Assembly (NCBI GenBank): GCA_023229525.1
Contig: JALNZC010000001.1
Location: 31,860-95,859, forward strand
Origin: Bacteroidales bacterium
Lineage (GTDB): Bacteria > Bacteroidota > Bacteroidia > Bacteroidales > FEN-979
Length of the DNA: 64,000 bases
Direction: 5' to 3'
This document shows, one piece after another, positions 33,474 through 62,942 of the stretch; positions within the stretch are counted from its first letter, which is position 1; each line of letters starts with the position of its first letter. The position numbers and the translations under genes are program-made. The notes below the pieces were generated by a model. That model had not been told where the DNA came from. It made no database searches and saw only the letters and a program-made list of their open reading frames with translations.

Positions 33474-33522
33474 AAAAAATTCAAAACTTAAAACTCAAAA
33501 TTCAAAACCAAAATAAAAAACC
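33474..33522. repeat. Tandem heptamer array (TCAAAAY), about 6 units
   Basis: tcaaaac ttaaaac tcaaaat tcaaaac caaaata aaaaacc in the atpB-atpE spacer. Confidence 0.7.
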
Positions 33523-33539: not shown

Positions 33540-33595
33540 TCGTCCCTCGTCCTTCGTCCCTCGTCTTTCGTCCATCGTCCTTCGTCCCTCGTCCT
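33540..33595. repeat. Tandem heptamer array (TCGTCCY), 8 units
   Basis: tcgtccc tcgtcct tcgtccc tcgtctt tcgtcca tcgtcct tcgtccc tcgtcct; the last unit overlaps the atpB stop codon. Confidence 0.85.
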
Positions 33596-34745
33596 AATGG
33601 TGTTGCGGTTCTAACAATGCCAATCCAAAATAAAGAGCCGACAATAAGGTAAAAACATAGGCTTGTATAAAAGCCACCAGCAATTCAAGAAGATTCATGA
33701 AGAGCATAAAGGCAACCGACACAACGGATACCCCAAGTCCCAGCGCTGTACTGATTGCTCCAAAAATAAAAATCAGACTGACGAATCCGAGCACGATGAT
33801 GTGTCCCGCCGTGATATTGGCAAAGAGTCGGACCATCAATACAAAGGGTTTGGTAATAATTCCGATTATTTCAACCACTGGCATCAATGGAATGGGGAAT
33901 TTCAACCACCATGGAACACCCGGTGTATTTACAATATCCACCCAGTAATGTTTATTTCCGTGCATGGTCGTGAGAATAAAAGTAAATACGGCCATTACCA
34001 GAGTCACTGTAATGTTACCGGTAACATTGGCACCTCCCGGGAAAAACGGAATGAGTCCGAACAGGTTATTGAAAAAGATAAAAAAGAATACGGTCAGGAG
34101 ATAAGGCATGAATTTCTCATAATGTTTTTCTCCTATAGAACTCTTTGCAATATCATCGCGGATAAAAATGATCAAGGGTTCAACCAGCGATTGTAATCCT
34201 TTGGGAGCTTGGTTTTTGTTACGCTTATAAGCATTTGCGACGGAGATAAAAATGAGCATCAGCAAAAATGAGCTGATAAAAATCGCCAATACTGTCTTTG
34301 TGATCGAAAAATCGTAAACTTTGGGCTCTGATATATTGTTAATCCCTGATTCCATATGAACGATCTTGCCTTTCCCGGATCCTTCATTACCCAGTCTGAA
34401 CCCTTGATAAGAATGGGTTTCGTTATGAAACCGGTTGGAAGAGAAACAATAAAGTTGCCCTTTATAAAGAAGAATAACCGGTAAGGGGATCGTTAATTCA
34501 AGGCTGCCGATTTCCGCCACATGCCATTCGTGATTATCCACTACATGCTCCATGATCATGTCGCCGGCATTGAACTTGCCTTCTCCTTTTTCCTTTGCCG
34601 GCGGATTGGAAATACTATCACGTGAAGGGATCAGCATGGAATGATCCTGTGACCATGCCTGTTTCCCACTTCCGGTATTTGCCAGGATAACCAGAAACAC
34701 CATGGCGCTTATACAGAAATAAAAGGAAGATTTCTTCGTTATCAT
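33594..34745 (-). CDS. atpB: Fo ATP synthase a subunit with a long N-terminal extension
   Basis: C-terminal conserved LFANITAGH (essential Arg region RLFAN) and five TMs; about 150-aa N-terminal extension with a signal-like start. Confidence 0.9.
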   Translation of the reverse strand: MITKKSSFYFCISAMVFLVILANTGSGKQAWSQDHSMLIPSRDSISNPPAKEKGEGKFNAGDMIMEHVVDNHEWHVAEIGSLELTIPLPVILLYKGQLYCFSSNRFHNETHSYQGFRLGNEGSGKGKIVHMESGINNISEPKVYDFSITKTVLAIFISSFLLMLIFISVANAYKRNKNQAPKGLQSLVEPLIIFIRDDIAKSSIGEKHYEKFMPYLLTVFFFIFFNNLFGLIPFFPGGANVTGNITVTLVMAVFTFILTTMHGNKHYWVDIVNTPGVPWWLKFPIPLMPVVEIIGIITKPFVLMVRLFANITAGHIIVLGFVSLIFIFGAISTALGLGVSVVSVAFMLFMNLLELLVAFIQAYVFTLLSALYFGLALLEPQHH

Positions 34746-38195: not shown

Positions 38196-38909
38196 ATGGG
38201 CTTGATCCTTTGTTTGGAGACTGCGACAGAGGTTTGTTCCGTTGCTCTGGCTTTGGATGGTAATTTGTTGAAAATCAAAGAATCGAGTTCACCCAATGTC
38301 CATTCATCCCAACTTACCCTTTTTATCGAAGAAATTGTTCATTCCAGTGAATTTACCCTTTCCGGTCTCGATGCGATAGCCGTAAGCATGGGTCCTGGCT
38401 CATATACCGGTATACGCATAGGAGTTTCCACCGCCAAAGGCCTTTGCTATGCCCTCGATAAACCACTGATCGCCATACCCACGCTCCAATCCATGGCCCA
38501 GGGCATGAAAAATCATTTATCCGGCATCCAGTATCCGGCATCCGGTATCTCTTTAATTTGTCCGATGATCGATGCCCGCCGGATGGAAGTCTACGCTGCG
38601 ATTTACGATAGCGAATTAAACACTGTCAGGGAAACTTCAGCTCAGATTATCGACAGAACAACATTTACGGAATACCTGACCAATTCAGCTATTCTATTTG
38701 CCGGAAACGGAGCATCGAAATGCAAGCCATTTCTGGAACATCATAAAAATGCTGTTTTTATCGAAAACTTTGCTGCTTCTGCACGTTTTATGGTTTCATT
38801 TGCAGAGCAACGATTAACCCGGAAACAATTTGAGGATATCGCTTATTTTGAACCCTTTTACCTGAAAGATTTTATTCCCGGAAAATCAAAGGTAAAAGGA
38901 CTAAATTAA
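38196..38909 (+). CDS. tsaB: tRNA t6A37 threonylcarbamoyl-transfer protein TsaB (YeaZ)
   Basis: ILCLETATEVCSVAL start, GPGSYTGIRIGVSTAKGL motif, IDARRMEVY. Confidence 0.9.
   Translation: MGLILCLETATEVCSVALALDGNLLKIKESSSPNVHSSQLTLFIEEIVHSSEFTLSGLDAIAVSMGPGSYTGIRIGVSTAKGLCYALDKPLIAIPTLQSMAQGMKNHLSGIQYPASGISLICPMIDARRMEVYAAIYDSELNTVRETSAQIIDRTTFTEYLTNSAILFAGNGASKCKPFLEHHKNAVFIENFAASARFMVSFAEQRLTRKQFEDIAYFEPFYLKDFIPGKSKVKGLN
38521..38548 (+). repeat. Heptamer array CCRGYAT x4 inside tsaB
   Basis: ccggcat ccagtat ccggcat ccggtat, translated as SGIQYPASGI. Confidence 0.75.
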
Positions 38910-38915
38910 CATCCA

Positions 38916-40097
38916 ATGATCAACAACCATTCATTCACAAGATTTCAAACCCGTGTTGTTCACATTGGGAATCTCCCCCTTGGCGGGAATTATCCGGTAC
39001 GGGTGCAGTCGATGACAAATACAAATACACTGGATACATCGGGAACAGTCGCACAAATCGAACGGATGATCAATGCCGGTTGTGAATATGTCCGGATTTC
39101 CACGCCAGGACTGAAAGAAGCTGAACATCTCCGAACCATAAAGCACGAACTGGTTAAACGCGGTTATCACACACCTTTGATTGCCGATGTTCACTTCAAT
39201 CCGAAAGTTGCTGAATTGGCAGCCACTTTGGTTGAAAAAGTCAGGATAAACCCGGGAAATTATGCAGATAAGAAAAAGATACAAGATGCAGGATACAGGA
39301 TACAGGATAAAAATTATCAGCAGGAGTTGGAGTACATTGCTTCCCGTTTGAAACCACTGATTACGATTTGTAAGGAACATGGAACGGCTATCCGTATCGG
39401 CACCAATCATGGATCGCTTTCCCAAAGGATTCTGGATCGTTTTGGCGACACGCCCGAAGGGATGGTTGAGTCGGCGCTGGAATTTGTCCGTATTTTCGAA
39501 GGATATGATTTTCATGACCTGGTTCTTGCCCTGAAAGCCAGCAATCCGAAAGTAATGATCCGGGCCAACCGCCTCCTCGTGGAAACCATGAAACAAAACG
39601 GGATGAATTATCCGCTCCATCTGGGTGTAACCGAAGCAGGATCGGGTGAAGAGGGCCGTCTTAACGCTGCTGTCGGGATCGGTAGTTTACTGACCGATGG
39701 CATAGGGAACACCATCCGGGTTTCGCTTACCGAAGATCCGGAGTTTGAAATTCCTGTTGCCTATGGAATTCTTCAGGCATCCGGTGCACGGATCACCCGG
39801 ACTGAGTTCATCTCCTGCCCATCTTGCGCCAGGACCAAGTTTAACATTCTGGATGCGGTTGAAACCATTAAAGCCCGTACCGGCCATTTGAAAGGATTGA
39901 AAATCGCCATTATGGGGTGCATCGTCAATGGGCCGGGTGAAATGGCCGATGCCCATTATGGTTACGTGGGTGCCGGCAAAGGAAAAGTGATACTGTACAA
40001 AGGACAGGATCCTGTAAAAAAGAATGTGGATGAATCTGAAGCCGTTGGAGAGCTTATCAACCTGATCAAGGAACATGGAGATTGGGTGGATCCGTAA
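38916..40097 (+). CDS. ispG: 4-hydroxy-3-methylbut-2-en-1-yl diphosphate synthase
   Basis: VRVQSMTNT, RINPGN, IRIGTNHGSL, LGVTEAG, and the C-terminal cluster Cys ISCPSCART...GCIVNGPGE. Confidence 0.95.
   Translation: MINNHSFTRFQTRVVHIGNLPLGGNYPVRVQSMTNTNTLDTSGTVAQIERMINAGCEYVRISTPGLKEAEHLRTIKHELVKRGYHTPLIADVHFNPKVAELAATLVEKVRINPGNYADKKKIQDAGYRIQDKNYQQELEYIASRLKPLITICKEHGTAIRIGTNHGSLSQRILDRFGDTPEGMVESALEFVRIFEGYDFHDLVLALKASNPKVMIRANRLLVETMKQNGMNYPLHLGVTEAGSGEEGRLNAAVGIGSLLTDGIGNTIRVSLTEDPEFEIPVAYGILQASGARITRTEFISCPSCARTKFNILDAVETIKARTGHLKGLKIAIMGCIVNGPGEMADAHYGYVGAGKGKVILYKGQDPVKKNVDESEAVGELINLIKEHGDWVDP
39278..39312 (+). repeat. Heptamer array GATRCAR x5 (reverse-complement phase of CCTGYAT) inside ispG
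   Basis: gatacaa gatgcag gatacag gatacag gataaaa, translated as KIQDAGYRIQDK. Confidence 0.75.
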
Positions 40098-40104
40098 AAA
40101 CACA

Positions 40105-40142
40105 CCGTGGCAGGGACGCACTGCAGTGCGTCCCTGCCACGG
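40105..40142. terminator. Perfect 38-bp palindrome between convergent ispG and the lipid-kinase gene (bidirectional terminator candidate)
   Basis: CCGTGGCAGGGACGCACTG|CAGTGCGTCCCTGCCACGG; starts 8 nt after the ispG stop and ends 4 nt before the opposing stop codon. Confidence 0.6.
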
Positions 40143-40146
40143 ATGA

Positions 40147-41097
40147 TCATGGACCAATGATGACTTTCAGGCAACGCGGGATAACTTCATAAACAAAAGG
40201 GGTATGCCCCAGGGATTCACCATCGGCTTCCAGATAAATCTTACCTGTTGACCGCATTCGTATGCTTTTACCACGATACGTATTTACGATCGGAAGATCC
40301 ACCAGTGTGCCGTCAAAAAGTTTTCTGGCATACCGGAACACCTTCAGCTTCGACGTTTTCTTTATCAGGGTGACATCCATCAGACCATCGTCGGGAATGG
40401 CATTGGGCACCTGTTTCATCCCGCCACCATTGAATTTGCAAATACCGACATTCATGGAGAAAATTTCACCTTTGAACACCGTCCGGTCATCGATTTCGAT
40501 CACTCCCTCCATGAACTTGTATTGAAACAGACTTGCAAAAACAAAATACAAATAGGCCAGCGGAGTCCCCTTACCTTGTTCTTTCAGAAGGTTGGTCTTT
40601 TTAGCAACAAGTGCATCGTATCCCATCCCCGCCACATTCATGAAGTAGCGGGTTTGCGGTTTGTCCTTCTTAAAATAACTGATTTTCCCGACATCCTGAA
40701 CAAACGGTCGTTTATGTTTAAGAATATCCACGGCCTTTTTATAATCAAAAGGAATGTCGAACATACGGCACCAGTCATTCCCTGTTCCGACGGGTATCAT
40801 TCCAAGAGAAATATCGATAGGGGTCACTTTTTGCTGAAGGAAAATACCATTCAGCACCTCGTTTAGTGTTCCGTCCCCACCCACTACGACAATATTTCTG
40901 TATCCGGCTTCAATGTTTTCAATAGTCAGTTGTGTTGCATGATCACGATGTGCGGTGAAAACGCAAGTGAAGTCAAAGCCCCGCTGCTGAATATACTTGT
41001 ATATTTTCGGCCACTCTTTTTCCCCCTTTTTACTGCCGGCATTTGGATTGACGATGATCAGCCATTGGGCAGGAGAAATAGCCTGAATATCCGTCAT
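40147..41097 (-). CDS. Diacylglycerol/lipid kinase family protein (YegS/BmrU type)
   Basis: VNPNAGSKKG, VVVGGDGTLNEV, IPVGTGNDW motifs. Confidence 0.85.
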   Translation of the reverse strand: MTDIQAISPAQWLIIVNPNAGSKKGEKEWPKIYKYIQQRGFDFTCVFTAHRDHATQLTIENIEAGYRNIVVVGGDGTLNEVLNGIFLQQKVTPIDISLGMIPVGTGNDWCRMFDIPFDYKKAVDILKHKRPFVQDVGKISYFKKDKPQTRYFMNVAGMGYDALVAKKTNLLKEQGKGTPLAYLYFVFASLFQYKFMEGVIEIDDRTVFKGEIFSMNVGICKFNGGGMKQVPNAIPDDGLMDVTLIKKTSKLKVFRYARKLFDGTLVDLPIVNTYRGKSIRMRSTGKIYLEADGESLGHTPFVYEVIPRCLKVIIGP

Positions 41098-41217
41098 GAA
41101 AAGTCAGTTTTGTTCATAATATCGCGTTGCAAGTTACTTTTTTTTGAACTAAAAGTGATATCTTTATCCGTGAATTAACCAAGTTGGCCTTTTTATTTAT
41201 TTTAACAAAATCCGGGA

Positions 41218-41853
41218 ATGGGGCAACGGAAATTTACAATCACTGTGCTGTTAATGTGCCTTTGTCTGCCGTTTTTAACCGCGCAAACCGCCGATACCGA
41301 TAAATCGCTCACCTGGTTTAACAAGACCGAAGCGGGTGTTTCATTCGGGATCGGATCTTTTAAAACCGATATTGTCAATGGAATACAGAAAAAGATCCGG
41401 AACGATGAAATTGTGGTTACTTTTCAAACCATCAATGGCTTCAAATATATGAACAGGGTCTTTCTGGGTGTCAGTGTCGGCGTTGAGAAATGGCAAAATG
41501 GGTTGTTCTGGCCCATTTATGGCTATCTGGGCTATGCGTTAAAACCTGCCGGGAATACGTTTTTTGGAAATATTTACCTGGGAAGCGCTATCGGGACAAG
41601 GTACTCAACCACACATTATGAACAGGGAAAAGGAGGATTTGCGTTAAGTATCGGGTTGGGATACCGGATAAACATTTCGAAAAAACTGCAGTTCATTTAC
41701 GAGATCTTCTATAAATACCAGGCGCTGGAATCGAACTATTTCAGGAAAAATGATGTTACAAAGGATTCGGTAACAATTCAAACAAAAACATCGGTTAACT
41801 ATAAAGTTCCGCTTCATTTTGCCGGATTCAAAATCGGCATCTGCTTTCCCTGA
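41218..41853 (+). CDS. Hypothetical outer-membrane beta-barrel protein
   Basis: Signal peptide, alternating aromatic/Gly beta-strand pattern, C-terminal ..FKIGICFP. Confidence 0.45.
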   Translation: MGQRKFTITVLLMCLCLPFLTAQTADTDKSLTWFNKTEAGVSFGIGSFKTDIVNGIQKKIRNDEIVVTFQTINGFKYMNRVFLGVSVGVEKWQNGLFWPIYGYLGYALKPAGNTFFGNIYLGSAIGTRYSTTHYEQGKGGFALSIGLGYRINISKKLQFIYEIFYKYQALESNYFRKNDVTKDSVTIQTKTSVNYKVPLHFAGFKIGICFP

Positions 41854-41943
41854 CCTTTCCCCTAAATGATGTTTTTTCCGTTTTCTCTTTTTTCATGAAA
41901 TGGAGCGAGGGAGATAAGATCAAATCAATTGGTATGAACCCCA

Positions 41944-41996
41944 GGCAAGCCCTGACCCCGAATTCTTCCTCAAAGGGCGGGGATGAGGTGATTAAA
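41944..41996 (+). repeat. Dispersed REP-like element, copy C (internally deleted form of copy B)
   Basis: GGCAAGCCCTGACCCCGAATTC...GGGCGGGGATGAGGTGATTAAA. It shares both ends with copy B and ends 3 nt from the stop codon of the O-antigen-ligase-like gene. Confidence 0.7.
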
Positions 41997-41999
41997 TCC

Positions 42000-43676
42000 T
42001 TAAAGCGGGTCGGTTACTTTGCGGGCAAACAGGAAAAAGGAGTAGAAAAAAGTAAAGAAAACCACTCCGGTTTGAGATTCTATGGTGTCTTCCGTCATCA
42101 TTGAAAGAAATGAAATGATAAGGAATACGATGATAAAAAAATCGCCATATCTTCTTTGTAAAAAGGGAGGATATAAAATCGCGACTAAAAACCAAACCAA
42201 TCCAAAAATACCAAAGCCGATAAAAATGGACAGAAACTGGTTATGCGACCGCCATCGTTGGTCGGGCGCCAGTTTTGAGTGCATTTTTTCATACTGTTCC
42301 TGAAATGCAATATTCATATCTCCGGTCCCTACTCCATAAAGCCAGTTTCCCCTGATTATCCCGAAAGAAGCTTTCCAGAATTCCAGTCGTTGCATAAGTG
42401 TCGACCCTGTGGGATTGCCAGTTTCCCTGTAATTTTCAAAACCGTGCAAAAACTCATACACCCTTCCCCGGATGCTGAATTCTTCCAGAAAAACAGCATT
42501 GGCAACTCCTTTTTCGATAGCCTCTACTTCGGCAGGTGTCAGTTTTTCAACCGCATCAGCATCTTTCCGCCACCCTTTTGAAGTGAGAAAACGAATCACC
42601 GTATAGGCAATCGGTTGCTTTTTTTTATCTACACTGTCAAACGGGATTTTACTGCGTGTGTTCCACGATTCCCGGAGTTCGTCCCACTGAATATAGATCC
42701 ATAAATAATTTCCGTTTTCCGTCTGGGGAGCATAAATATTATTGATATACTTGTTACCACGGGAAGTATATTGCTCCAGTCTTGTAAAATCAATCGGGTT
42801 GGCTTTGTAATAGTCGTTTATTATCGCCCGGAAATAGAAAAAAAATCCGGTGGAGATAAGTAAAATTAAAATAACCATGCTGATTTTAAACCATCGCTTT
42901 CTGGTTTTGAAAATGAGAATTGGAATTAGGATCATCAGGGTCAGGATCGAAATGGCAAAACCGGTGAACGATTGTGACAGGATAAGGTAAAAAATAAACC
43001 ATAATAAAACCGGGATAAAAAGAAGCCGGAGCCAAGATGGAAAAAGTCCTTTTTTTATGGAATAAAAGAGGAGGGAATAAATTCCCATGGTTAAAAGAAG
43101 TCCGAATATGATATGGGAAATATTCCGGGAAACATCACGGATATCTATATATTGATTCGTCTGAATGAGCCAGGCATTATAAACCGATCTCACCAGTATA
43201 GCCAGGATAAATAAAAGCATGAAACGATGAAATCCTTTTTTTTCAAATGCCTCAGAAGTTGAGAAAAAAAGTGGGAGCAATAAAATGGGTAGTTTTGTCC
43301 GGAGATCTTTGAAGGCATATCCGAAATCGCTGGTAAAGATCAATCCAGCCAAATGGAGAAACAAGATCGAACTGAATATAAGGGCCGGTTTGTTCCGGTA
43401 AAACTGTACAAATCCTTTTCCGATACCTTCAAATCCAAGATAAAAAGTATAGGGCAAAAAGAGTAATAATTTCCCGGAGAACGATTGCAAAGCAAGATAG
43501 GATCTTAATTTGCGATAGTCGAATCGTTCCACGATCCATCCTCCGGCCATCATAAATTGGCCAAAGCTCTGTCCGAATTTTGAAAATGGGAGCGAGGCGA
43601 TGATGATGCACAGCGACGTAATGTACCAAAACCGTTCGAAATGTTTCCAGGTCATCTTCATGGGTAACTCAGGCAA
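42000..43676 (-). CDS. O-antigen ligase/polymerase-like polytopic membrane protein (Wzy_C type)
   Basis: At least 10 TMs plus a large periplasmic loop ending ..GVGTGDMN......WRSHNQFLSIFIGFGIFGL, typical of the O-antigen ligase family. Confidence 0.65.
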   Translation of the reverse strand: MPELPMKMTWKHFERFWYITSLCIIIASLPFSKFGQSFGQFMMAGGWIVERFDYRKLRSYLALQSFSGKLLLFLPYTFYLGFEGIGKGFVQFYRNKPALIFSSILFLHLAGLIFTSDFGYAFKDLRTKLPILLLPLFFSTSEAFEKKGFHRFMLLFILAILVRSVYNAWLIQTNQYIDIRDVSRNISHIIFGLLLTMGIYSLLFYSIKKGLFPSWLRLLFIPVLLWFIFYLILSQSFTGFAISILTLMILIPILIFKTRKRWFKISMVILILLISTGFFFYFRAIINDYYKANPIDFTRLEQYTSRGNKYINNIYAPQTENGNYLWIYIQWDELRESWNTRSKIPFDSVDKKKQPIAYTVIRFLTSKGWRKDADAVEKLTPAEVEAIEKGVANAVFLEEFSIRGRVYEFLHGFENYRETGNPTGSTLMQRLEFWKASFGIIRGNWLYGVGTGDMNIAFQEQYEKMHSKLAPDQRWRSHNQFLSIFIGFGIFGLVWFLVAILYPPFLQRRYGDFFIIVFLIISFLSMMTEDTIESQTGVVFFTFFYSFFLFARKVTDPL

Positions 43677-44484
43677 ACAACTTGGCCCGACCTTTTTTAA
43701 CTTTAATCCGGAAAATCGTGAAACTATCAGTTCCCCGGATATCGATCCGTTTTACCTCAAACCTGTTGACAATAGGCCAGGGATTAAGCCGGTTTCCGAT
43801 CCGCAGAGCGAAATCAAGACCAGCTTGCTCAAAAAGGTTAAACATCGATTTTTTCAGTTCAGGGTCTTTTTTAGGATAACCGCCATAAGGATAAGCCAAT
43901 ACCCGGGTAAAAGGTATTCCATAAAAATCAAGGGTTTCCTGACAATTTTTCAAGTCTTCCTCCATATCGGTAACCGCCATATTACGATAGTTTTTATGCA
44001 GAAAGGAATGTATTCCCAACTCTACCGGTTCGTTGTTTGACAACTGCTTCAGGTCGCCGGCCGTTAATATCAGATCGCTACCCTGGTCCCAGAGATTGGT
44101 TTTTCCGATAAATGCTACAGGAATAAAAAGCGTGGCTGAAAAACTATACTTTTTTAACAGGGGCAACGCATGATCCTTGAAGTTTAAATAGGCATCATCA
44201 AAAGTGAGAATAATGGATTTCTTTGGAAAAGGCGCCTTCTCAGTATTCAATCTTTTCAATTCTTTGAATGTAAGGGTCTGATATCCTTTCTCCTTAAGAT
44301 ACATGAGCTGCATGTCGAATTGTGCTGTCGTTACGGTTAACCCATCAGCCCTGTTTTCGAGGATTTTATGGTACATTAAAACAGGAAGACCTTTCCGGGC
44401 CGGGATCAGGAAGCTGTATTCAAAAATCAGGTAGCCAATAATGAGCAAAAGAATTGCTGCAAGAATAATTTCCAGGGTTATCAT
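43669..44484 (-). CDS. Polysaccharide deacetylase (NodB homology domain) with N-terminal TM
   Basis: LTFDDAY (TFDD motif), FIPVAF, HSFLH His motif. Confidence 0.8.
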   Translation of the reverse strand: MITLEIILAAILLLIIGYLIFEYSFLIPARKGLPVLMYHKILENRADGLTVTTAQFDMQLMYLKEKGYQTLTFKELKRLNTEKAPFPKKSIILTFDDAYLNFKDHALPLLKKYSFSATLFIPVAFIGKTNLWDQGSDLILTAGDLKQLSNNEPVELGIHSFLHKNYRNMAVTDMEEDLKNCQETLDFYGIPFTRVLAYPYGGYPKKDPELKKSMFNLFEQAGLDFALRIGNRLNPWPIVNRFEVKRIDIRGTDSFTIFRIKVKKGRAKLFA

Positions 44485-44489
44485 GGGCT

Positions 44490-45242
44490 TTACTCTATTT
44501 CAATGGTTTTGGCAACTTTCAGCGACGCATAAACCGCAGCCAGAAACGACCACATAAATCCGGGATAACCGTCGAGAAATCCCAGCTTGATAAAATAAAA
44601 GGAAATAAAACTCGCCGGAAATTTAATGGCTACCCAAAGCTTTGAAAAGGATTTCTTTTGGGCATGATATCCTTCGGCTGCCTGGGACGTATAGATGTTT
44701 ATCTTTTCGAGATGGTGGCTGATATTCCGGTAAGAATAGTGAACTATTTTACCGCTCATAACCCCAATGGCGCCATCAACCTCGATGCCTTCATGTACCG
44801 GGACATCAGTAAACCGGCCCCGTGTACGATTGAAAATGCGCAAATGATATTCTTTCCCAACCCCGCTGTGATTCAGAATTTTTCCCATAAAGTATAATGA
44901 AAACGGTATCCTGAACCCTGCATCCTGTATCTTATTTCCCGGATCCTGCTTTAATTCCACGATCTCCTGCTGAAGTTCGGGAGAGACGATTTCGTCTGCA
45001 TCCACCGAAAATACCCAGTCGTTTAAGGCCTGGTCAATGGCAAATTGCTTTTGCCTTCCATAGCCATCGAAAGGACGCTGAATGACCCGGCAGCCAAATT
45101 CTCGGCACAGATCTGCAGTCCGGTCAGTTGAAAAGGAATCGACGACGATGATTTCATCAGCAACCGGGTTTACCGATTTCAGACACCGGAGGATGACTTT
45201 TTCCTCGTTATGCGCGATAATGACCACCGATAATCGACGCAT
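44490..45242 (-). CDS. Family 2 glycosyltransferase
   Basis: LSVVIIAHNEE, VVDSFSTDRT, DADE (DxD) motifs. Confidence 0.85.
   Translation of the reverse strand: MRRLSVVIIAHNEEKVILRCLKSVNPVADEIIVVDSFSTDRTADLCREFGCRVIQRPFDGYGRQKQFAIDQALNDWVFSVDADEIVSPELQQEIVELKQDPGNKIQDAGFRIPFSLYFMGKILNHSGVGKEYHLRIFNRTRGRFTDVPVHEGIEVDGAIGVMSGKIVHYSYRNISHHLEKINIYTSQAAEGYHAQKKSFSKLWVAIKFPASFISFYFIKLGFLDGYPGFMWSFLAAVYASLKVAKTIEIE
44907..44948 (+). repeat. Heptamer array YATCCTG-like x6 inside the GT2 gene
   Basis: tatcctg aaccctg catcctg tatctta tttcccg gatcctg. The coding (minus) strand reads QDPGNKIQDAGFRIP. Confidence 0.7.
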
Positions 45243-53673: not shown

Positions 53674-53750
53674 AGAATTTGAATTTTTAGTTGTTAATAT
53701 ATTTATTAGTGTTGATTATTTGATGATTTGATAATTTGATTATTTTAAAA

Positions 53751-61484: not shown

Positions 61485-62831
61485 TTGGCCGGCATCTACA
61501 TTCATATACCGTTCTGTAATCGCAAATGTCACTATTGCAATTTTTTTTCACTTGCTTCACAGAAAAACAGAACGGAATTTCTGACAGCGCTGAAAAGTGA
61601 GATAACCCAGACTCGTGATTACCTGGCCGGCGAACCGGTAAATACCATCTATTTTGGCGGAGGAACACCTTCCCTCTACCAACCGGAAGCATTGCAAGAA
61701 GTTTTGGAGATATTAGCTGAATCCCCGAGCCTCCCTGATCCCAAGTCTTCATCCAGCATCCAGCATCCAGTATCCAGCATCCAGCATCCAGTATCCAACA
61801 TCCAGCATCCAGCATCCAGCATCCAACATCCAGCATCCAACATCCAGCATCCAGCATCCAACATCCAACATCCAACATCCAACATCCAGCATCCAGCATC
61901 CAGCATCCAGCATCCAGTATCAACGAGCGAAGCGAGCCTGCATCCTGCATCAACACTTAAGGAGATAACCCTGGAGATAAATCCGGATAACGTGACCAGC
62001 GTGTTTGTAACTGAATTGAAGCATACATGGTTCAACCGGTTCAGTGTTGGGGTGCAGTCGTTTTTTGATGAAGACCTTGACTGGCTGAACCGCGCACATT
62101 CAGCCAATCAGGCGATCGGGGCCGTCAGGTTATTACAGGAAGCGAGATATGAAAACATCAGTATTGATCTGATTTACGGTATTCCATCTTCCACCGATAC
62201 CCGATGGCAGAAAAACCTCGAAACTGCCTTTTCACTTGGCGTTCCGCATATCTCAGCGTATGCCCTTACAGTTGAATCCGGGACCCCGCTTGCATGGATG
62301 ATAAGTAAAAAAAGAATATCACCATTGGATGATGAACTACAGGTAGTCCAGTTTAAAATGTTAATGGAAATGGCCTTGGATCATGGTTTTCAGCAGTATG
62401 AGATTTCAAATTTCGCCAGATCCGGTTGGAACGCAATCCACAACACCAATTATTGGAAAGGAATTCCATTTCTGGGCTTGGGTCCTTCGGCACACAGTTA
62501 CAATGATAACTCGCGGCGATGGAATGTTTCCAACCTGTCGGAATATATTGAACGTATTACCAACGGTGCATGCCTGTATGTGGAAGAACATTTGACCCCG
62601 GAACAGAAATACAACGAATATGTAATGACCTCACTCCGGACGATGTGGGGCTGTGATTCACAAAAACTTATTTACGATTTTGGATCTACGATTTACGATT
62701 TTTTTCGAAAAAACGCTTTACCAATGATCGACCGGGGGTTACTACGGGAGGTTTCCGGAGTTTATTTCCTTACGGATGAAGGGAAGTTGTTTGCTGATGG
62801 GGTGGCGGCAGGGTTGTTTTTGGTGACGTAA
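61485..62831 (+). CDS. hemW: Radical-SAM heme chaperone HemW / oxygen-independent coproporphyrinogen oxidase-like, carrying a repeat-encoded insertion
   Basis: [17 protein letters not shown] (CX3CX2C), [25 protein letters not shown], and HemN_C-like tail. TTG start in the track. Confidence 0.85.
61750..61924 (+). repeat. Tandem heptamer array (CATCCAG)24 plus 1 degenerate unit inside hemW
   Basis: Counted by eye: 24 consecutive YATCCAR units from 61750 to 61917, then tatcaac. All six reading frames are open across the array. Confidence 0.95.
62670..62704 (+). repeat. Heptamer array ATYTACG-like x5 in the hemW 3' region
   Basis: atttacg attttgg atctacg atttacg atttttt, translated as [13 protein letters not shown]. 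Confidence 0.65.
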
Positions 62832-62907
62832 TGTTGATGCCGGATAATGACTCACTTCATTCGCAGGAGTGAGATGCAGAAAGACAAGTAAGAGATGGGA
62901 GATAAAT

Positions 62908-62942
62908 AAATCGTAAATCTAAAATCGTAAATCAAATCGTAG
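62908..62942 (-). repeat. Heptamer array AAATCGT-like x5 (inverted copy of the 62670 array)
   Basis: aaatcgt aaatcta aaatcgt aaatcaa atcgtag; reverse complement of the ACGATTT phase of the upstream array. Confidence 0.65.

Follow-up and report, generated by a model that had tools for sequence, protein, structure and literature searches.

In-frame heptanucleotide arrays at orthologous sites in ispG and a family 2 glycosyltransferase gene of an uncultured Bacteroidales bacterium

For the window analysed here, a 64,000-nucleotide stretch of a Bacteroidales genome (assembly GCA_023229525.1, contig JALNZC010000001.1, positions 31,860 to 95,859 of the forward strand), we identified tandem arrays of one 7-base repeat family, CCNGYAT or, on the opposite strand, ATRCNGG, inside four genes: ispG, a family 2 glycosyltransferase (GT2) gene, tsaB and hemW (Table 1). 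An earlier note on this DNA had remarked that the repeat gives the unrelated enzymes IspG and GT2 a common peptide, KIQDAG[YF]RI, and the heptamer strings and peptides in both genes proved to be exactly as it had written them, positions included. In ispG, Tandem Repeats Finder (TRF) delimited the array to positions 39278-39309 with a period of 7, 4.6 copies and 88% matches, and the translation at this point contains KKIQDAGYRIQDK. The GT2 array reads tatcctg-aaccctg-catcctg-tatctta-tttcccg-gatcctg on the forward strand, and the translation of the gene includes NKIQDAGFRIP. This block is the weakest of the four, with three of its six units perfect, and TRF at a score of 30 does not report it; we retained it after a degenerate pattern match (2 mismatches) and recovery of the same six-unit register in orthologue DNA. 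The tsaB array belongs to the same family as that of ispG in the opposite orientation relative to the coding strand. The arrays begin at codon 121 of 393 in ispG, at about codon 99 of 250 in the GT2 gene (both impure tracts) and at codon 89 of 448 in hemW.

Table 1. Genes carrying arrays of the CCNGYAT / ATRCNGG family, and the arrays themselves, in window coordinates.
Feature	Positions	Strand	Basis or product
tsaB, 237 aa	38196..38909	+	translation; TIGR03725, 161 bits
tsaB heptamer array, TATCCGG CATCCAG TATCCGG CATCCGG	38518..38549	+	TRF; encodes SGIQYPASGI
ispG, short-form (E)-4-hydroxy-3-methylbut-2-enyl-diphosphate synthase, 393 aa	38916..40097	+	translation; NCBIfam TIGR00612, 445 bits, full length
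ispG five-unit heptamer array, GATACAA GATGCAG GATACAG GATACAG GATAAAA	39278..39312	+	encodes IQDAGYRIQDK, residues 122-132
GT2 glycosyltransferase gene, 250 aa, in a lipopolysaccharide (LPS)/O-antigen-type neighbourhood	44490..45242	-	translation; GT2-type NCBIfam matches; PF00535
GT2 six-unit degenerate array, coding strand GATCCGG GAAATAA GATACAG GATGCAG GGTTCAG GATACCG	44907..44948	-	encodes DPGNKIQDAGFRIP
hemW, radical SAM heme chaperone, 448 aa	61485..62831	+	TIGR00539, 246 bits, in two stretches flanking the array
hemW CATCCAG array, 24.6 copies, 92% pure	61750..61921	+	TRF; about eight SSIQHPA repeats, about 57 residues
Short second hemW array, CCTGCAT x2.1	61937..61951	+	encodes SLHPAS; 15 bases past the long array

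The family is strongly over-represented in the window. A search for 3.3 tandem copies of ATRCNGG on both strands, with up to 3 mismatches and an expectation drawn from 100 dinucleotide shuffles, returned 29 matches at exactly the four loci above against 0.03 expected. These four are the dispersed loci of the family in the 64 kb; all are coding and in frame and they lie within 23 kb of one another, as the proposal that a single heptamer family runs through ispG, GT2, tsaB and hemW had held. The arrays were also correctly described as free of stops. Stop codons are missing from all six frames of CCNGYAT; heptamers of this kind make up about 50% of the total, or 39% after weighting for the composition of the window. 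In frame, ATRCAGG encodes [IM]-Q-D-A-G-[YC]-R, and the opposite strand, used in hemW and tsaB, encodes H-P-A-S-S-I-Q. Because 7 is not a multiple of 3, three successive units are read in all three phases and any in-frame array on the same strand therefore yields the same cyclic heptapeptide. KIQDAG[YF]RI is thus common to IspG and GT2 because the two genes share motif and strand, and the shared peptide adds no independent evidence beyond the shared motif.

Both blocks lie in or beside loops, as had been surmised. The IspG block falls within an insertion that follows the conserved NPGN, and residues 121-146 of the query do not align to the solved structures 3NOY and 4MWA. In the AlphaFold2 model, residues 121-130 have a predicted local distance difference test score of about 53, the minimum of the TIM-barrel domain, and are flanked by a strand (108-111) and a helix (131-155). 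For GT2, the model places the 5' half of the array in a loop (residues 99-106, QDPGNKIQ) and the 3' half in a confidently predicted beta-strand (107-118, DAGFRIPFSLYF).

The ispG array was followed through relatives drawn from a metagenome scan and through the best 120 homologues of the protein. A search of genome contigs with an IspG alignment gave, among the matches listed, mostly long-form enzymes from other Bacteroidota together with four close relatives, and these served as outgroup and control. The usual Bacteroidota sequence after NPGN is NPGNYADKKKFExIEYTDxxYQxEL, whereas the short-form clade has a different loop there: the pattern x-[DE]-x-G-Y-W-M-x-[DE]-K-N-Y is seen in the majority of the best 120 homologues, which are 69-82% identical. 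Within this range, relatives at 70-82% identity show x-D-A-G-Y-W-M-L-D in this place. The corresponding DNA of loci L083 and L086 is perfectly heptameric (ATGCTGG ATGCTGG ATACTGG ATGCTGG ATAA), the array is partly decayed in L001, L082, L087 and L165, and in L164 periodicity is limited to CTGGATA CTGGATG (P-G-Y-W-M), with the peptide KFEPGYWMIEKNY. The L164 loop has KFE in common with the ancestral long-form loop, but its D/E residues also stand 7 residues apart, as a decayed array would leave them. In comparison with L083, four units of the window carry A in place of T at the same position within the unit (protein changes L to Q, W to R and L to Q), and two units carry A in place of G. Such same-position changes across units argue for unit turnover and not for independent point mutation. 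The resulting CAG variant is also found in relatives P0007, P0014 and P0022. The G and Y codons of the core vary synonymously (GGA/GGT/GGG, TAC/TAT) with G-Y-W retained, so the IspG core is under protein-level selection as well.

The window IspG is the 393-residue short form. Most of the recovered Bacteroidota loci have the long form, in which there is a large insertion. NF002534, a model of 613 positions, gives a partial match, and alignment of the long-form loci is confined to query residues of about 7-290. The clade that lost the IspG insertion domain is the same clade whose post-NPGN loop has turned repeat-rich. Some lineages have a separate 7-8-residue insert, CLPAGQAG in IspG orthologues P0006, P0028, P0048 and P0044 and CSLPAEQAG in GT2 orthologue P0235, that breaks the heptamer-derived peptide in both enzymes; its back-translation suggests a short GC-rich palindrome (GCCTGCCGGCAGGC).

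The tsaB-ispG-...-GT2 order is kept in about 19 related loci, and in relatives the GT2 gene is accompanied by Wzy_C, polysaccharide deacetylase and Glyco_transf_9 neighbours. In three orthologues the GT2 DNA has six units in the same register as in the window and the unit variants differ: GATGCAG GATACAG GATTCAG, twice over, in L162 (QDAGYRIQDAGYRIP); four GATGCTG followed by two GATTCCG in L163; and two GACACAG, then GATACAG, GATGCAG, GATACAA and GATCCCG in L161. The ispG and GT2 arrays are therefore orthologous and old, and relatives with 64-86% protein identity show them in an unchanged register. In the orthologues examined for both genes the number of units is constant and the unit-sequence variants differ in concert. 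The recurrence of the same arrays in many independent assemblies rules out an assembly artefact.

Orthologues lacking the block exist as well, among IspG and GT2 relatives and in the long-form IspG of Bacteroidota. Nearly all GT2 orthologues have AG[FY]xIPFSL, among them orthologues of base length that lack repeats (L085, L088, P0198 and P0206); examples are ETISQAGFRIPFSL in P0198, GNAGFRIP in L085 and GNAGFKIP in L088. At 34-50% identity, the orthologues still show an aromatic-x-aliphatic pattern. Based on these comparisons and on the model, AG[FY]RIP of GT2 is an ancestral beta-strand, predicted to be ordered, which the array adjoins and includes. The earlier note had reasoned that residues shared by distant orthologues would mark the peptide as ancestral instead of repeat-derived. 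Half of this was borne out, in that AG[FY]RIP is found in repeat-free GT2 and GYW is conserved in IspG. Orthologues that share the residues are themselves heptamer-periodic in their DNA, so sharing does not show the peptide to be non-repeat-derived. KIQDAG[YF]RI is thus partly repeat-derived only.

Other repeats occupy the same GT2 region elsewhere. Orthologues P0133, P0153, P0155, P0158 and P0168 contain 8-residue repeats, for example SPNHSITQ five times, GHRVTGSQ three times and VTGLQGDK, which is consistent with 8-base units read in three phases. An intergenic octamer array, TTGATTAT in 4.2 copies, also lies in the window at 53712-53745.

Two coding arrays of the family remain. In tsaB, at least eight other heptamer motifs occupy the same loop in relatives. 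HemW of the window is about 65-70 residues longer than most orthologues, and its 24.6-copy array is absent from the best 120 orthologues, many of which have inserts of other kinds at that loop. Given its length and purity, the tract should undergo frequent slippage, by which the gene could be frameshifted. In dozens of HemW orthologues (P0249-P0322) the peptide TSPPDPSPxGEGR recurs in this loop, sometimes two or three times, and its back-translation suggests an in-frame GC-rich palindromic element of the CCCCTCTCCCC...GGGGAGAGGGG type. A further array, ATTTACG in 4.6 copies, lies inside the C-terminal part of hemW (62670-62701), and one of the same family, TAAATCG in 5.3 copies, lies just downstream of the gene (62907-62941); members of the AAATCGT family are again found between genes in L087, L094 and L099.

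We compared 587 kb of loci from the clade of the window with 1.83 Mb of loci from other Bacteroidota. Period-7 arrays occur at 15.0 per 100 kb in the clade against 3.9 elsewhere (about 4-fold), and period-8 arrays at 6.1 against 1.3 (about 4.7-fold), with other periods similar. Within the clade, 55 of the 124 period-7 and period-8 arrays lie well inside long open reading frames (ORFs). Array density is nevertheless about 4.5-fold lower in long ORFs than outside them (12 vs 54 per 100 kb), so that coding DNA is tolerated by the arrays and not preferred. The in-frame position within enzymes that had been remarked on holds for the four arrays of the window, but arrays as a whole are rarer inside long ORFs than outside them.

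Motif choice in the clade is broad. The IspG loop elsewhere contains GTCACGC (VTRHASR), GGACACG (GHGTRDT, 19.7 copies in L124), GAACGAA, GGTTCAG, ATACCGG or CATCCAA; repeat peptides in the TsaB loop of relatives include NYELRIT, NDQLPMT and RFKVQGS among others; the GT2 loop contains SRIPHPA as well as the octamer-derived repeats described above; and the HemW loop contains VTRHASR besides the TSPPDPSPxGEGR insert. In viral contigs, four tandem copies of YATCCNG were found in 32 stretches, compared with 24, 37 and 32 for three composition-matched control motifs that are free of stops in six frames (the first and third controls overlap in some instantiations). The viral contigs with CCNGYAT arrays range in GC content from 0.30 to 0.68 and often carry them in long ORFs. 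In the viral contigs the motif is therefore no commoner than its controls; CCNGYAT is not intrinsically privileged and is one of many heptamer and octamer motifs.

Some further arrays were observed alongside these. Viral loci L168, L175, L187 and L197 share a 1302-base ORF with two CATCCAG/TATCCAG arrays near one end, one of which encodes LDTGYWMLD, and contigs of metagenome-assembled giant virus genomes also bear arrays of the CCNGYAT family. Between genes of the window lie AAAACTC in 5.6 copies (33476-33513) and, adjacent to it, TCGTCCC in 7.9 copies (33540-33595). The latter starts directly after the stop codon of a minus-strand ORF (33594-34745), and its reverse complement, GGGACGA, is the in-frame motif of the IspG loop in L097.

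The reading that we prefer, at a probability of roughly 0.6, is that the ispG and GT2 blocks are slippage-driven in-frame heptanucleotide microsatellites, old and orthologous, that occupy permissive surface positions and were seeded by the codons of a conserved peptide. The codons GGA TAC NGG ATR (G-Y-[WR]-[IM]) already amount to two tandem GGATACN units. Similarly, GCA GGA TAC AGG ATA (A-G-Y-R-I) contains two tandem CAGGATA units, and GGA TAC TGG ATG of IspG (G-Y-W-M) is likewise two units. A codon-level proto-repeat of a shared type in the two genes can account for the rise of one motif family in each of them. Under this reading, the codons of a short conserved G-[YF]-[WR]-[IM] peptide would have created a proto-repeat, which would then have grown and been homogenised through replication slippage or unequal exchange and been inherited vertically. 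The surviving arrays would be those with length changes in multiples of 3 bases and no stop in any phase, because the genes are needed, and structural permissiveness would act as a further filter. Slippage as the mechanism, and a seed that preceded the array, are what we infer. Beyond filling a loop, the repeat peptide as such is unlikely to serve a purpose; ordinary protein-level selection does act on parts of it, namely the GYW core in IspG and the AGFRIP strand in GT2.

Several observations weigh against this reading. The IspG loops of L164, L086 and the window are equal in length, so that simple expansion does not describe the relation between a two-unit core and a five-unit array. No copy-number variants were seen among proteins in the 90% clusters, which hold the window's own alleles only (P0361 and P0241 differ solely at the start residue). 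Unrelated motifs occupy the same loops of IspG, TsaB, GT2 and HemW across lineages, most of them with no evident local seed. Motif sharing reaches 14.7% between arrays at separate sites of a genome, against 5.3% between arrays of different genomes (permutation p=0.0005; the random-heptamer baseline is 2.1%). Local seeds by themselves do not account for such within-genome sharing or for loops that host many motifs; a bias in slippage or repair that is specific to the genome may be involved, or a spread like that of the short tandemly repeated repetitive (STRR) sequences.

These last two points are also what an active process would predict, whereby an active or trans-acting mechanism (ectopic conversion or an enzyme activity) spreads lineage-specific heptamer and octamer families and selection leaves the in-frame, stop-free arrays in permissive loops; a process of this kind has been considered for the STRRs of cyanobacteria and for TAACTGA repeats. 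Further observations are consistent with it: L119 has four AACCGAC-type arrays spread over different genes and L125 has three ACGCCTC arrays, GTCACGC occurs both in ispG and in a distant ORF of L095, the AATTACG, AAATCGT and ACGCGTC families are found in intergenic and coding DNA alike, and the window itself packs four coding arrays of one family into a short distance. We consider active spread possible but on the whole unlikely. No machinery was found, nor any conserved flanks or target-site duplications at the arrays, the motif is no commoner than controls elsewhere, and a genome-specific slippage or repair bias would give motif sharing too. The ispG and GT2 arrays are old and not newly seeded, and a local codon-level seed is present for both; the G-Y-[WR]-[IM] seed favours chance seeds plus slippage over active seeding for these two genes. 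The coincidence of the CAG variant in ispG and GT2 of both the window and L166 comes from two genomes, too few to use. The motif sharing within genomes is in line with the earlier suggestion of genome-wide seeding, one of the two options raised there, but the fresh colonisation of ispG and GT2 that it implied is contradicted by the age of their arrays. It is improbable, in turn, that no repeat dynamic is involved and that the peptides are functional motifs of ancestral origin in the two enzymes, with codons that yield the heptamer periodicity as a by-product. This reading would account for AG[FY]RIP in repeat-free GT2 orthologues, its position in a beta-strand and the pattern retained at 34-50% identity, and for [DE]xGYWMx[DE]KNY, with synonymous variation, across most of the short-form IspG clade. 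The DNA is, however, perfectly periodic over 4-6 units including those for non-conserved residues, and units change in concert at the same positions. Sister lineages have unrelated repeat peptides or none in the same loops, the ancestral Bacteroidota IspG loop FExIEYTD is without such a motif, and model confidence is low at the IspG block. We regard it as very unlikely that the arrays are contingency loci, in which gain or loss of a unit would frameshift the gene off and on, most plausibly through the long hemW array. The ispG and GT2 arrays are short and impure and their unit number is constant in orthologues; every array seen is in the ON frame and mid-gene, away from the 5' end; and no frameshifted alleles were found in the 90% clusters, which are limited to the alleles of the window. 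Both ispG (methylerythritol phosphate pathway) and tsaB (threonylcarbamoyladenosine synthesis) are moreover essential housekeeping genes. In favour of phase variation, non-triplet intragenic simple sequence repeats (SSRs) are its classic device (PMC4692102), and the length and 92% purity of the hemW tract are those expected of an array that slips.

The arrays offer a natural system in which to measure the interplay of slippage, frame constraint and protein-level selection. Non-triplet microsatellites in bacteria are usually regarded either as kept out of gene interiors or as devices that switch genes on and off. The present ones have lasted in frame within essential enzymes over considerable divergence, change in concert, and endow unrelated proteins with identical peptides. 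The arrays also carry a warning for annotation and homology searches, as repeat peptides common to unrelated proteins can pass for homology. In addition, they provide a comparative handle on why given heptamer families dominate given genomes, as with STRRs, GGGAATC and TAACTGA.

Among known systems, the blocks are heptanucleotide long simple sequence repeats (LSSRs), namely head-to-tail copies of a 5-11-base unit above the expectation from composition. Heptamers are the commonest class of long SSR in prokaryotes and have been linked to polymerase slippage (Mrazek 2007, as summarised in PMC4679880 and PMC4692102), and for families defined by one heptamer motif a mostly intergenic location, with under-representation in coding sequence, has been described (PMC4679880, PMC4692102). 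The arrays described here resemble prokaryotic heptanucleotide LSSRs in their head-to-tail 7-base units, sporadic distribution across lineages, proposed origin by slippage and lower density in coding DNA. They differ in that a substantial share in the clade of the window (the 55 of 124 above) is mid-gene and in frame in conserved housekeeping enzymes, and in being kept at orthologous sites across 20-35% protein divergence while evolving in concert. Literature searches for in-frame heptamer arrays in Bacteroidetes turned up nothing specific.

The contingency loci of host-adapted pathogens likewise have a non-triplet SSR within an ORF, where a change of one unit would shift the frame. In contrast to them, the genes here are housekeeping genes, the arrays are mid-gene and for the most part short and impure, and none of the alleles seen was OFF. 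The typical contingency locus, a pure tract that sits close to the 5' end or to the promoter of a gene for surface or restriction-modification functions, was therefore rejected as a class for these mid-gene arrays, of which those of ispG and GT2 are impure. Rickettsia palindromic elements (RPEs) insert in frame into unrelated metabolic genes (review PMC10969869). The likeness to RPEs and other MITEs (transposable elements of the miniature inverted-repeat type) lies in selfish-looking repetitive DNA that is tolerated in frame at fold-compatible positions and gives family-specific peptides in unrelated proteins. An RPE, however, is a mobile palindromic element about 150 bp long that is inserted whole, whereas the blocks here consist of tandem 7-base units and change by unit turnover; with purely tandem units and no inverted-repeat arms, they were not assigned to in-frame MITE- or RPE-like elements.

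Described STRR consensus heptamers include CCCCAGT, TTGGTCA and CAACAGT, and membership of this cyanobacterial family was rejected for the CCNGYAT / ATRCNGG unit, which is set apart from all three. Among comparable families, GGGAATC heptamers are found in Xanthomonas and Nostoc (PMC4692102) and TAACTGA repeats in Beggiatoaceae, cyanobacteria and five Bacteroidetes (PMC4679880). As in these families, genome- or lineage-specific heptamers recur here at many unrelated sites. STRR, GGGAATC and TAACTGA repeats are mostly intergenic and near gene ends, and some have been proposed to be regulatory or to form G-quadruplexes; the motifs here are different (CCNGYAT, GTCACGC, GGACACG, AATTACG and others), are translated within enzymes and belong to uncultured Bacteroidales/Bacteroidota hosts. 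It is conceivable, although we think it unlikely, that this uncultured Bacteroidota clade has an STRR-like process that propagates heptamer and octamer families and repeatedly overwrites the permissive loops of IspG, TsaB, HemW and the LPS-type GT2. If so, non-triplet repeats would be a regular source of new translated peptide segments, and the different motifs in the loops of sister lineages would allow a comparative study of how dispersed heptamer families originate. The arrays are heptanucleotide SSRs of a known class and not a new molecular machine; what sets them apart is their long-lived, in-frame persistence at orthologous sites and the reuse of the same loops.

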